Of a stretch of 62,817 nucleotides of DNA, positions 33,381-62,817 are shown in pieces; the stretch's first letter is position 1; every line of letters begins with the position of its first letter. The notes beneath the pieces were generated by a model. The model was not told the origin of the DNA. It ran no database searches and saw nothing but the letters and a program-made list of their open reading frames with translations. Both the position numbers and the translations under genes were made by a program. This DNA comes from Carcharhinus longimanus (lineage: Eukaryota). The DNA is taken from the NCBI GenBank assembly GCA_030264375.1, contig JASCQW010000105.1, positions 49,203,732-49,266,548 on the forward strand, read 5' to 3'.

Positions 33381-34064
33381 TCAAATTTCAGGTCCAAATC
33401 AAACAGCCCACAATATATGTGTTGCTGCCCAGCACACCTAATTCTTCAAATGATTGAAGTTCCACACAACCTTTAAAGTATCCTCAATGCTCTTTGGCAA
33501 ACTATGGTGCAGAAATTATTCGGAAGTTAAACTAAAAATAAGAAACACTGCATTACTTCTGAAGTTCACAAGAACATAAAATTTGTTTGTGCTTCACACT
33601 GATATTGAATTCTGCCAATGCTTTCTTTCTGCTTGGTAATTGCCTGTGAAATATCAGCAAAAGTGAGATCTGTCTATGAGTAACATTCTGACAGCTGACA
33701 CATTTATTTCATGATTTTTTTCCAAATTTTAGTTTGATGATGATGCAGCCAAAATGGAGAGTTCAGCAACAATTGTACAGTTATTCACTATGTTTGTATT
33801 CAACATCAGAATGGAGAAGCAGTTGCAGTCAAAAGTAGTCCCATAATACTCGTCCCTGCTCTTTTCCGTGCCTCCACTGAAAACAAGTGAGGAGCCCTTT
33901 CTTGCAGCTGATCTTTTTTCCTTTAGATGGAATCCTTCCGCCTGGAAACAGACATCAATGGCAGCATCAGTGTGCATAGCAGAATGACCAAACTGACATC
34001 AGTTTAGGCAGATATGAAAGGGGTCAAGTTCTTGGATGTTACAACACACTACTCTAATGTAAGT

Positions 34065-34330
34065 TGGAGGACACTATCACACCTTGCTTCCCAACTGTAG
34101 GTTAGTAAATACTGTTCCACCACTTTATACCGTTGCATTATAATTGACACTGTTAAACTAGACTACATCTTTGTGGTATAGTAGACATTATTACACTATG
34201 ATTACTACACTTTTGTAGGTTAGTGGACAATATTCCACCATGCTTCACCATTGTGGACATTGTTACATCATGCTACGTTTCTGCGGGTTAATAGACATTG
34301 TTATACTGCACTTCACCATTGTGGAGGTAC
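34065..34330. repeat. Degenerate tandem repeat of about 40 bp
   Basis: Recurrent GACATT(G/A)TTA(C/T)AC...CTTCACCATTGTGG / TGTAGGTTAGT units. Confidence 0.55.
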
Positions 34331-34900: not shown

Positions 34901-37084
34901 CTTGCCATTAATATGTACATTACAATTCCTCATATCAGCCCCACTGCTTATGATCTGGCCAACATTTACTGTTCAACCATCATCACTTAAAATAAATACT
35001 TGGTCATTAACTCTTTGTGAGACCCTTCTATGTGCAAACTGGGTGTTGTGTGCCGATTTTATAACAGTGACTGCAGTTTAATTTGCTGAAAGCACTTTGG
35101 GACATCCTAAAGTTGTGGCATGCAAGCAATATTTAAATTTGTCTTTCTTTTTTGCTTAGGGTGCAGAAAGGGAATGCACTCAATTAATTTCAAGGTGGTG
35201 CCTGATACCTTAACCATGATAAAGCTTGTCACAATTGTATCAATGACTGGTGTATCTTTTGCTGGAGTCACTGCAAAGTCATTTCTTTTTGATATGGTGC
35301 TTGCTGTCACTTGGGCAGTCATGCGATGACACAGTTATCACTACCACAGATTTGAGTGCCAAATTGATGATCCTGTTAAAGCACATGTGCCATTGTTTGA
35401 GGGCATCCACTTACCATCTCCTCATCTGTCTGAACACAGAACAGTTAGTATCGATGGAGTCTCAGAATCACATTCTGATGATAGGTAATGATAATTCCCT
35501 TTGTGCAATTATATATTGGAACCTCAGTTCCTCAGCAATAACTACAACCACCAAACACTGACCTCTTTTCTCCCCTTTCCATTTTTTGAACCGATTTCAA
35601 TAGGTGGTACAAATAATGCCAACATTACTACAGTCAGATGAATGGTCCATTTGTCCTTTCTACCTTTGTTGCATCACTTTTTCTTCATACGTTTATTGCC
35701 ACAATTAGTAAAGGCAGAAGTTAATGCACCAACAGCTTTGGCTGTGGATATTGTTTCTGTAGCACCGCAGGATACTTTCCATGCTGTCAGCTGCTTCAGG
35801 TGAGGACCGCGCGGTGTACCAGGTTGAAAAGGGCATCCTCTGTGCATGTCAGAAGCATCAAATTTGGCACTATGCTTACATTACACAGCCCTGGTTGAGA
35901 TTTTCCTGGAAATGGGCACAGGCCGATAGAGGGGGTGGTGGTGGTGGGTAGGGNNNNNNNNNNNNNNNNNNNNNNNNNNNNNNNNNNNNNNNNNNNNNNN
36001 NNNNNNNNNNNNNNNNNNNNNNNNNNNNNNNNNNNNNNNNNNNNNNNNNNNNNNNNNNNNNNNNNNNNNNNNNNNNNNNNNNNNNNNNNNNNNNNNNNNN
36101 NNNNNNNNNNNNNNNNNNNNNNNNNNNNNNNNNNNNNNNNNNNNNNNNNNNNNNNNNNNNNNNNNNNNNNNNNNNNNNNNNNNNNNNNNNNNNNNNNNNN
36201 NNNNNNNNNNNNNNNNNNNNNNNNNNNNNNNNNNNNNNNNNNNNNNNNNNNNNNNNNNNNNNNNNNNNNNNNNNNNNNNNNNNNNNNNNNNNNNNNNNNN
36301 NNNNNNNNNNNNNNNNNNNNNNNNNNNNNNNNNNNNNNNNNNNNNNNNNNNNNNNNNNNNNNNNNNNNNNNNNNNNNNNNNNNNNNNNNNNNNNNNNNNN
36401 NNNNNNNNNNNNNNNNNNNNNNNNNNNNNNNNNNNNNNNNNNNNNNNNNNNNNNNNNNNNNNNNNNNNNNNNNNNNNNNNNNNNNNNNNNNNNNNNNNNN
36501 NNNNNNNNNNNNNNNNNNNNNNNNNNNNNNNNNNNNNNNNNNNNNNNNNNNNNNNNNNNNNNNNNNNNNNNNNNNNNNNNNNNNNNNNNNNNNNNNNNNN
36601 NNNNNNNNNNNNNNNNNNNNNNNNNNNNNNNNNNNNNNNNNNNNNNNNNNNNNNNNNNNNNNNNNNNNNNNNNNNNNNNNNNNNNNNNNNNNNNNNNNNN
36701 NNNNNNNNNNNNNNNNNNNNNNNNNNNNNNNNNNNNNNNNNNNNNNNNNNNNNNNNNNNNNNNNNNNNNNNNNNNNNNNNNNNNNNNNNNNNNNNNNNNN
36801 NNNNNNNNNNNNNNNNNNNNNNNNNNNNNNNNNNNNNNNNNNNNNNNNNNNNNNNNNNNNNNNNNNNNNNNNNNNNNNNNNNNNNNNNNNNNNNNNNNNN
36901 NNNNNNNNNNNNNNNNNNNNNNNNNNNNTTTGTGAGGGAAAAGAATCAAGGGTACTGGGTCCCACATTTGCTGACCAAATCTCTGATCTGCCTGCCCTGC
37001 CAACTACTTAGTAATTCAAAGACCAAGGTGCTATTTTTAAAGGCTGTACCTTTAAGGAATTCACCCTCGAATGCCTCCCACAAG

Positions 37085-59844: not shown

Positions 59845-60238
59845 TGTTGGAGTGAAATCGAAATTAAAGAACACAAAATGGTTACCCTGGCACAAAAGCA
59901 GGACCAAAACAATGAGTTTTGATAACGAGATCAGCCATTGATGGGGACATACTCTATGTATAACGATGTGGTAACTATCAATGTCCGTATTTGTCTATGT
60001 ATAACGATGTGCTAACAATCGATGCCCATACTTGTCCTCTTAACATATAATGATGTGCTAACAGCTAATATCCGTACTGTCCATTATCTAAAATGTATGA
60101 AAGATGCTCAACTACCATTGTAAAGTTGAGAAGGTGACTGCACACACTGCGGAGAGCCCAGTGCTTCTCCCAAAGCTTTGTCCGATAAAACTGTGTGTTG
60201 AATCTCCAAGTATGACTCCAAGTGGCGATTTTCCCACA
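59845..60238 (+). repeat. 5' LTR (394 bp)
   Basis: TGTTGGAG...TTCCCACA imperfect inverted termini (TG...CA), followed closely by the PBS; TATA-like TATGAAAG near 60097 and GATAAA at 60184. Confidence 0.75.
59952..60082 (+). repeat. Three tandem 41-45 bp repeats in U3
   Basis: TATAA(C/T)GATGTG(G/C)TAAC...(C)C(G/A)TA(T/C)T three times. Confidence 0.85.
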
Positions 60239-60244
60239 AAAAAT

Positions 60245-60263
60245 TGGCATAGTCGGGCAAGAT
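60245..60263 (+). promoter_or_regulatory. Primer-binding site complementary to tRNA-Ser
   Basis: TGGCATAGTCGGGCAAGAT vs TGGCGTAGTCGGCAGGAT (reverse complement of the vertebrate tRNA-Ser 3' end): two substitutions and one extra G. Confidence 0.85.
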
Positions 60264-60270
60264 CTCACTG

Positions 60271-60279
60271 CTGGTGAGT
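60271..60279 (+). promoter_or_regulatory. Putative major splice donor
   Basis: CTG|GTGAGT just after the PBS. Confidence 0.6.
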
Positions 60280-60869
60280 TGGATCGGTTGGCCTCGATTG
60301 GCGAAGTGGGGTAGAGATCATTGAATCTGTGGGAGTCAGACTGAGTCAACAATGCAGTTTAAAATGGGTAAAAATTAGGGGAATTTATGGTATAGAAATA
60401 AGTATTCATTGTTAATGATATAGAAATAAGCATTGACTGTTACTTGTGCTGATCGACTAAAGGACAAGGAAGTGCCTGTCTCAAACTTACAGCCTTAGAC
60501 CAGTTGTTAAGAGGAGAAATCTCCCATACGAAGGTCAGGACCCTGAAGTGGGTGTAGAGGCACAAGAGCACTTAGGATCTTGAAGTCCAAGTGGCAAAGG
60601 TCATTTAACATCAAACTCTGTAGTGGTGAACAAACGTAGAGTTTGCCACCTGTTTGCATGAAAGTGTGTATAGTTGTGTACTTGTCTAAATCACATTGTA
60701 AAGTGGTGCAGAAAAGGAGCTGATCACTTTGACCTAGAGCCGGACTCCAGTGGAGAAAACACATTGCCGAGGAGATAATCGTGGCCATGAGTATAAATAG
60801 AAACCCAAACGGTGGAGAAAACATGTTGCTAAGGAAGTAATCGAGGCTGGGGGTAGTGAAGTCTGTGAG

Positions 60870-61840
60870 ATGGCAGATAGAGAAACTAAGTGGGGACCTG
60901 CAGGTTCTCTCAATGATAAATATACGACAGACAGACACGTGTTAATTAAGAAGATGGAAAGGGATGGCTGGGATGTTTCTCAGGCCTTAGAACAACAGAG
61001 AAAGTGGGTAGATGGAGAGAAGAGAGACAAAACAAAAAAGGCAGGGGTAATATTAGTACGTCAATTAGCGGGACTAATTGAACTAGTCGGCGCCTCCACT
61101 AAAAGGTGAAGCGAGGATAAGGATAAGATTAAAAAATTTGGAATCCAGAGTAAGGGAATTGGAGAAAAGGAATTGAGTATTAGAGGAGAATCAATAAGGA
61201 AGGGAAACTCTTCCTTTGCCCTCTTATGAGTCCACACAACAGGGACCAACCACCCCTCTACAGGATGGGGAAGCGCTAGAACAAATGCTCCTACTAATTG
61301 GAGCAGAATCACAACGACCAAGCAACAAAAAGGGGGAAGGAGCTTCTCAATATGGGGAACGGTTTTTCCAAGTATACCAGGAATGCTCAGGGCAGGGAAA
61401 CCGAGGCAGCGGGAATCGAGCTTTCATCCAGGCATTCAAGGATGGGCTCTCCAGCGCTTGCCAAACCATCCTAAAAATGGGAGTGATCATGTCCCAGGAT
61501 TATAATGAACTAGTGGAATGGGCTAGTGACGTACAGGGGGCAGGGAGAGAAATCTCAGACGAGGATAAGACAGGAAAGTGTAGCTGCCTATGGTAGCGGG
61601 AGCAGAACTAAGCCCCAACTGATCTGTCACAATTACGGCCGACAAGGGCACTTTGCAAAGGAGTGCTGGGTCCCAAGGAAAGGAAACAAATTTGAAAACA
61701 GTGGGTGACATTGTAATTACTGTAATAAAAGTAGATACCCGGAAGCAATATGTTGGGACAAATATGGGAAACCCCCACCCCGATCCATGTCCACAGCAGA
61801 ATCAGAGGAACCAAGGAACCTCCGAGGTCAGCAAGACTGA
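60870..61840 (+). pseudogene. gag: Retroviral gag (frameshifts and stops)
   Basis: GAGATGG start; coiled coil IKNLESRVRELEKRN; MHR-like GEGASQYGERFFQVY; knuckles CHNYGRQGHFAKEC and CNYCNKSRYPEAIC; ends CAA GAC TGA. Confidence 0.85.
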
Positions 61841-62740
61841 GGGCCTGCAGCCCCCATTCACAAGGAATAAGTAGGAGGGAAGGATCTATGTGTCTGCACT
61901 AGTAGGGGACAAGTAATGTGAGATGTTGGTGGACACAGGAGCATCCATATCTGTCACTGACCTTCACGTACCCACTACAAGTAAGATGATTTATTTAACA
62001 TGGATAGGAGGGAACAAAACACCCACCTACCTGAGTGATACCATGTTAGCAGAAATAAATAATTTGTATATACCTATGAGATTCTATGTATGTAAAAATA
62101 ATGAGGGTACAATAATAGGGAATGATTTAATGAAGGAGCATGTCATTTTGATTGACGGTGGGAAGGGACAATTAATCTCGCCAAAACGGGATGGCCATAA
62201 AACCGGAATAGAAAAGCTCACAAGTCACCTCAAAACTATCAAGATGGCCACAGCCACCACCAGAGACTGGCGACGAGAAACAGAGGGGTTTGGAGCTATC
62301 TGTGCCTCCATTCCCAGGGTATGGGCCAAAACAAAATTAGACACTGGCCTAACCAAAACTGACTTGATAAAAGCTGCCCGGACCGGAGCATAAGCCCCAC
62401 CAACAATACCCGATAAAATCGGAAGCAAAGGCAGCTGTAGTAGAACGAGTTAAAGGGTTAGTGGAGAAAGGAATCCTGAGGGAAACTACGAGTACCACTA
62501 ACTCCCCAACCTGGCCAGTGAGCAAACCCAATGGAAGTTACAGGCTCACGATAGACTATACCGGCCTCAATAACATCACATCCAAATTGCACCCTATTGT
62601 AGCAAGCCCCTCAATAATCCTGGATGGATTGACTCTGGAGCGTAAAATCTTTACCATATTGGATATAACCAATGGATTCTGGTCCCTACTTTGGATCCCA
62701 AATCCCAAGACAAATTTGCATTTACAGTGGGAGGCAAACA
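61841..62740 (+). pseudogene. pol: Retroviral pro-pol: aspartic protease and N-terminal half of RT
   Basis: MLVDTGAS, IIGNDLM; QQYPI..EA, NSPTWPVSKPNGSYRLTIDY..LN, FTILDITNGFWS, then frameshifted LDPKSQDKFAFTVGGKQ. Confidence 0.92.
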
Positions 62741-62817
62741 GACGAGATCATGCAGCTGAATGCATGGTTGAGGGATTGGTGTAGGGTAGAGGGCTTTACT
62801 TTTGTGGATCACTGGGA
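62741..62817 (+). mobile_element. Start of a CR1 insertion (ORF1 SGNH esterase region) interrupting the ERV RT
   Basis: EIMQLNAWLRDWCRVEGFTFVDHW matches the CR1 ORF1 esterase motif LNxWLxxWCxxxGFxFxDHW. Confidence 0.75.

Follow-up and report, generated by a model that had tools for sequence, protein, structure and literature searches.

A retroviral 5' half lies at the end of a 62,817-nucleotide stretch of the Carcharhinus longimanus genome, here called the window. It runs from the LTR through the primer-binding site (PBS), leader, gag and protease to about the middle of the reverse transcriptase (RT). The question is which kind of retrovirus it belonged to. The original prediction saw a mosaic of lineage features and proposed a deep-branching, possibly uncharacterised lineage with a class III or loki-type RT. 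Our data indicate, with a probability of about 0.85, that the sequence is what remains of the 5' half of a single copy of a multicopy endogenous retrovirus, decayed and truncated at its 3' end, and that the RT of this retrovirus groups with the snakehead-like retroviruses (clade Huo, class III).

Anatomy of the window copy

The features are listed in Table 1. It was found by copy comparison and by Pfam and PDB matches that the predicted leader, gag, DTGA protease and N-terminal RT half are all present. The predicted start of the LTR held, and its length, given as 394 bp, was corrected by comparison with other copies. The window LTR is internally deleted, about 190 nt being gone relative to the family LTR of about 590 bp, and it contains three 41-nt tandem units (59953-60080). 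Its PBS differs from the complement of the tRNA-Ser(AGA) 3' end by two substitutions and one extra base. The gag gene carries stops at 61107 and 61706, frameshifts and a deletion of about 370 nt near 61283 relative to other copies; position 2 is not glycine, and late-domain-like and MHR-like motifs are present. The protease matches Pfam RVP (E 8e-4). The RT matches RVT_1 (E 0.009) and RT structures in the PDB down to E 3e-13, where foamy RT comes first with 53 bits vs 48 bits for MLV, a small margin.

Table 1. Features of the window copy, and the loci of the second env family in the same genome
Feature	Position	Strand	Basis or remark
5' LTR	59845..60241	+	397 bp; boundary from alignment to other copies
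PBS for tRNA-Ser(AGA), 3-nt spacer after LTR	60245..60263	+	Host tRNA-Ser(AGA) genes; 23-copy PBS table
Predicted major splice donor (motif match only), ~60274	60271..60279	+	Sequence
Leader, ~600 nt, common to family copies	60264..60869	+	Copy comparison
gag, broken	60870..61840	+	Homologous to the gag-pol of Heterodontus, P0157 (E 2e-15)
Zinc knuckle 1, degenerate in window copy	61625..61666	+	zf-CCHC match in a sister copy
Zinc knuckle 2, degenerate in window copy	61712..61753	+	27-copy junction alignment
gag TGA stop, predicted readthrough site	61838..61840	+	In frame with pro in modal copy
Protease (DTGA 61932-61943) and linker	61841..62370	+	Frameshift near 61863, plus stops
RT N-terminal half, ends before YxDD	62371..62741	+	Frameshifts near 62390 and 62690
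Young LINE insertion, ORF1 piece, outside provirus	62742..62817	+	Multicopy search and ORF context
Second env loci	L059:6714-7526, L060, L061, L062, L079, L081, L082, L083

The provirus is interrupted by a young, high-copy LINE, named CR1 from its motifs, an identification that we assume. A search with the LINE piece gave 123 candidate places, of which the 40 scored were 89-100% identical; its 24-aa ORF1 fragment had no Pfam match. Beyond the LINE comes an assembly gap of 2.4 kb, and no continuation of the provirus was seen within the 30 kb of downstream sequence covered. The downstream extension that had been proposed as a check was answered in sister copies, in which YVDD, RNase H, integrase, env, polypurine tract and target duplications were found. 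The window copy is dead, with deletions, stops, frameshifts, a LINE insertion and a missing 3' half. By itself it is an ordinary dead fragment, and the filovirus-like env that makes the family of interest sits outside the window. Elsewhere in the window, at 24176-57917, 34049-34325 and 36001-37000, there are numerous scattered SINE-like repeats, a 38-nt tandem array and a gap of Ns.

The family in the host genome

A search of the shark's own genome for further copies, which had been suggested as a check, turned up 614 candidate places with the LTR as query and 195 with pro/RT, numbers far above chance; 40 were scored in each case. The best 40 of the 195 pro/RT places, window excluded, are 79-88% identical to the window copy. 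The family is one of hundreds of copies in this genome. Intact LTRs measure about 590 bp and end in inverted repeats of 5 bp, and the internal region spans about 7.9 kb. The domain order in sister copies is PR-RT-tether-RNase H-IN-env followed by the polypurine tract, and the RT carries YVDD; dUTPase gave no match in the family copies. In sister locus L027 the env stop lies about 60 nt upstream of the 3' LTR, which leaves no room for 3' accessory genes.

The possibility that the family is an env-less Ty3/Gypsy retrotransposon is hardly credible. There is a general RT similarity (Ty3 RT, E 0.0015), but env is colinear with pol in many sister copies, a tether and second RNase H, a retroviral trait, are present, and the RT falls outside Gypsy in the tree. 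The expectation of an env-bearing retrovirus was borne out. The features by which Retroviridae are recognised are found in the sister copies, the window copy being without its 3' half.

Target duplications were surveyed in 16 elements with both flanks; three of 20 LTR loci had been dropped for want of one end, and four were 3' LTRs. An exact 4-bp duplication flanks nine of the 16 (one could be 5 bp), three of four bp are duplicated in one, and none in the remaining six. In eight proviruses the two LTRs are separated by K2P distances of 0.025-0.24, most of them 0.09-0.16. The family is old by this measure and undated in years, as shark rates are uncertain and the distances between LTRs are made larger both by CpG decay and by errors in the assembly.

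The prediction of tRNA-Ser priming was upheld, as the family PBS pairs with the 3' ends of the host's own tRNA-Ser(AGA) genes. One extra PBS base relative to this tRNA is seen in 15 of 23 copies, and an exact-pattern search found no host tRNA-Ser variant that accounts for it. It was also observed that L029, L033, L023, L030 and L015/L016 each hold two tandem internal regions about 15-20% apart; these are either tandem proviruses or assembly artefacts.

The gag-pro junction

Of 32 matches across the junction, 27 were full and were aligned; the five partial ones were dropped. A TGA stands at one shared gag-end site in 26 of the 27 copies. The codon that follows is CGG in ten copies, TGG in six and CAG in three, and TGG and CAG are probably CpG-decay products of CGG. 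The distance from knuckle to stop is a multiple of three in 15/27 copies and that from stop to DTG in 17/27, and the modal distances put gag, stop and protease in one frame. Against this, the frame is lost across the junction in 10 to 12 of the 27. The predicted readthrough junction is thus supported by sequence at the family level. The two zinc knuckles also hold for the family, both being intact in 7/27 copies, but in the window copy itself they are degenerate. A TAG at 61872 was considered as a readthrough site and rejected, since it is private to the window copy (1/27).

UGA-CGG is a type II readthrough context, and viruses using it need a 3' structure (PMC13517186). A search for stable RNA structure 3' of the TGA found none, with a mean z of -0.3 and 2/27 copies below -1.5, a result that counts against such readthrough; the copies are decayed, and pseudoknots fall outside the model. 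For fish and frog retroviruses the available text of this 2026 review gives the readthrough sites UAG-GGC, UGA-AGA, UGA-CGA and UGA-AGU, and UGA-CGG is absent among the retroviral sites given there (PMC13517186).

Phylogenetic placement

The RT tree contained 64 rows, for which 62 of 329 RT rows were picked by hand; an earlier tree had been made after thinning out 121 of 237 rows. Row identities were anchored on alignments in the supplements of PMC7947760 and PMC10435555, by which P0010 stands for SnRV, P0112 for a turtle ERV, and P0148 and P0215 for RTs of loki type; P0012 serves as stand-in for CmiERV1 by shared motifs. Foamy, ERV-L, ERV-S and class II elements, which have no rows in the tree, were compared by motifs.

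In the 64-row tree the retroviruses form a clade (100/100) that includes the family, while lokiretroviruses (100/99) and class I (100/99) form clades that exclude it. The family joins proteins of Mustelus and Heterodontus and one further protein at 99/98, and these group with teleost elements at 98/95. In the integrase tree the nearest neighbour of the family is unchanged, and lokiretroviruses again stand apart (100/100). To a family copy, RT identity is 84% for Mustelus asterias XP_078069418, 61% for the further database protein, and 49% each for Heterodontus francisci XP_067870587 and Pimephales elements; to SnRV it is 38%, hardly different from the 36-38% found with loki, epsilon and gamma rows. 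The nearest of these relatives point to a shark as the likely host. Judged by its sequence, the family is inside Retroviridae, outside Gypsy, loki and gamma/epsilon, and within the snakehead-like (clade Huo, class III) grade, neither basal nor loki-type. The class III part of the original RT assignment is therefore retained. The loki part is withdrawn, and so is the deep branching, because the family nests with teleost elements.

It is very improbable that the family belongs to the lokiretroviruses or to some other lineage branching off as sister to the retroviruses as a whole. The NSPxWPVxKP and DIxNGFW motifs are common to the family and loki RTs, as is the dual RNase H, but these motifs occur in SnRV and foamy RTs too, the loki rows keep to a clade of their own in both trees, and the family env resembles GP2 and retroviral TM with no F-protein match.

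Membership of class I was rejected on the exclusion of the family from that clade. The idea that the family is a separate lineage between the SnRV-like elements and class I (gamma/epsilon), with teleost relatives and the same workings, is rather unlikely but deserves weighing. In the free RT trees the SnRV-like rows are a grade and not a clade, and the family joins class I (93 in the earlier tree, 88/94 in the 64-row tree) more closely than SnRV; class I-like traits of the family are also its 4-bp duplication, its YVDD, its pair of knuckles and its readthrough junction. Against this, support for the link is below the significance mark, a forced clade of the family with SnRV and CmiERV1-like rows is not rejected (AU p 0.33, foamy, ERV-L/S and class II rows being absent), and CmiERV lineage I has the same PBS and RT motifs as the family; it should be noted here that key references are missing from the trees. 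We retain the placement in the snakehead-like grade.

On motifs, a canonical foamy identity was rejected, in agreement with the original prediction. Foamy viruses have no CCHC knuckle, no MHR and a pol with its own start (PMC8278194, PMC1224870, as far as the available text goes), and the family has two knuckles, an MHR-like motif and an in-frame stop. An ERV-L/XtERV-S identity was rejected likewise, as such elements have YIDD, a dUTPase, no knuckle and a 5-bp duplication, and the family has YVDD, no dUTPase match, knuckles and 4 bp.

Cartilaginous-fish retroviruses are reported as not basal in any clade (Xu 2018, PMC6001957), and 2,843 clade III RT loci have been counted across six chondrichthyan genomes (Blanco-Melo 2024), in the parts of these papers available to us. 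The element is one more lineage within this known diversity. Scans of viral contigs and metagenomes for relatives gave nothing useful. A cluster of database proteins around P0154 consists of a Pol-like protein of 941 aa whose catalytic motifs have decayed and whose length is near-constant across raptors; it may represent a class III pol that has been domesticated.

Comparison with known elements

The closest described system is CmiERV lineage I of the elephant shark, which Han (2015, PMC4422223) groups, through CmiERV1, with SnRV. By eye, and within the available text, it shares with the family the tRNA-Ser PBS after a 3-nt spacer, an in-frame TGA-C gag-pro junction, the NSPxWPVxKP and LDIxNGFWS motifs, a simple genome and a cartilaginous-fish host (PMC4422223). 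XtERV-S of Xenopus (Yedavalli 2021, PMC8278194) has, in its available description, a tRNA-Ser(AGA/TGA) PBS and an in-frame TGA, and it pairs a pol of class III with an env of gamma type, with an internal fusion peptide and an HR1 glycan. Identity of the family with CmiERV lineage I, or with an ERV-L/XtERV-S type element, is nevertheless very improbable, although the Ser PBS and in-frame TGA are the same. CmiERV1 has one knuckle and not two, a longer LTR of about 830 bp, a CX6CC env in place of the family's CX6C with a cysteine-flanked loop, and an RT about half identical by eye (PMC4422223, available text), and its stand-in P0012 falls in another clade. XtERV-S differs in its YIDD, dUTPase, lack of knuckles, 5-bp duplication, CX6CC and fusion peptide without cysteine flanks (PMC8278194, available text).

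SnRV and clade Huo (Xu 2018, PMC6001957) resemble the family in RT motifs, YVDD, readthrough strategy and position in a grade outside class I, as far as that text is available. SnRV differs in having UAG-GGC and one knuckle, and in its Pol the RNase H and integrase are separated by a long insert, which is missing in the family. This insert (P0010, about residues 770-940) shows two H-x-T/S-like motifs and no Pfam match, and is a putative 2H phosphoesterase. Lokiretroviruses (Wang and Han 2021, PMC7947760) share the dual RNase H and some RT motifs, but they form a separate clade and have an F-like env, and the available text reports none from cartilaginous fish. The Heterodontus protein (P0157) has a homologous gag with two knuckles, and together with the Mustelus protein (P0060) and the Pimephales elements it belongs to the undescribed relatives in the database.

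The features read as a mosaic are real, but they are largely a known package, because Ser priming, the in-frame UGA and the RT motifs already occur in CmiERV lineage I, and Ser priming and UGA in XtERV-S. To this package the family adds a TGA gag end, with TGA-CGG as its commonest form, two knuckles and a filovirus-like env. It is distinct from CmiERV lineage I and XtERV-S and apparently undescribed, as had been suspected; no published description was found in the open-access literature, a search that left Repbase, Dfam and subscription journals aside.

The envelope

The window copy has neither env nor 3' LTR of its own, and its env would have been that of its sister copies. A search of the genome for env gave 681 candidates, of which 150 were scored, giving 153 matches. 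The TM of sister copies matches the Pfam Ebola-like HR1-HR2 domain (E 8e-9), and its best PDB matches are filovirus GP2 (E 3e-12, vs 2e-5 for syncytin-2). A profile of seven natural fragments gave 72 bits for filovirus GP2, 41 for CAS virus, 35 for syncytin-2 and 19 for ASLV, a ranking that covers solved structures only, of which few in the PDB are retroviral TMs. Core-only PDB entries keep the same order (Ebola core, 50 bits).

Two cysteines flank an internal hydrophobic fusion loop (18/21 and 17/17 copies), and a disulfide between them would close the loop. A glycan site lies at the start of HR1 in 13/14 copies. The TM motif is CX6C and the third cysteine of CX6CC occurs in 0/22 copies, so that the usual SU-TM disulfide is likely absent. 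A canonical furin site was not seen at the cleavage site of the family env. A Mononegavirales F-like fold had been raised as something to check; the Pfam and PDB searches returned GP2 and TM matches and none to the F protein (PF00523), which speaks against it. AlphaFold models of two env fragments were poor (pLDDT 37 and 41), Foldseek on one of them was uninformative, and a phage search with env gave no match.

From the features observed for priming, readthrough, packaging and entry we infer how the virus probably worked. Reverse transcription would be primed on tRNA-Ser(AGA), Gag-Pol would be made through readthrough of the in-frame UGA, for which UGA-CGG, a type II context, is the commonest setting, RNA would be packaged with two CCHC knuckles, and integration would leave a 4-bp duplication. 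Entry would proceed via a class I fusion protein whose TM has a putative disulfide-bounded internal fusion loop, as in filovirus GP2 and alpharetrovirus TM.

It has already been published that some cartilaginous-fish retroviral elements carry filovirus-like ectodomains (Nino Barreat and Katzourakis 2024, PMC11521997), with 14 loci listed in Amblyraja, Scyliorhinus, Chiloscyllium, Rhincodon and Leucoraja; they were placed as sister to ebola-, cueva-, marburg- and dianloviruses with a modest posterior of 0.83. Those elements, compared with the family by description only, likewise have an Env ectodomain with filovirus GP2 as best viral match; the available text gives no analysis of RT clade, primer, readthrough, fusion loop or cysteines. 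What is added here is that a defined retroviral backbone and at least 150 env loci, datable in principle, are now tied to the shark filovirus-like envelopes, so that the origin of the filovirus glycoprotein becomes easier to test.

A second env family was found in the same genome, with eight matches at E 1e-30 and a TM 31-38% identical to that of the main env. It has canonical furin sites and the same cysteine-flanked loop, and it matches Sudan virus GP2 (E 9e-15) across cleavage site, loop and HR1. Three of the eight loci have an integrase upstream of this env, and class I rows are its closest matches (98/93 in the tree for two of them). A second env beside class I integrases suggests env exchange between retroviral classes. 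It is possible, and we offer it tentatively, that among retroviruses the shark env lineage stands nearest to the mammalian filovirus GP2 and is its likely source, that it already had the complete cysteine-bounded loop, and that it moved between class III and class I backbones within sharks. If this is true, a single genome records both the donor type of filovirus GP2 and its mobility. One second-env locus, L063:447-1145 (the same as L079), has CX6CC and a different C-terminal half, and looks like a recombinant of a filovirus-like TM with a canonical gamma-type TM.
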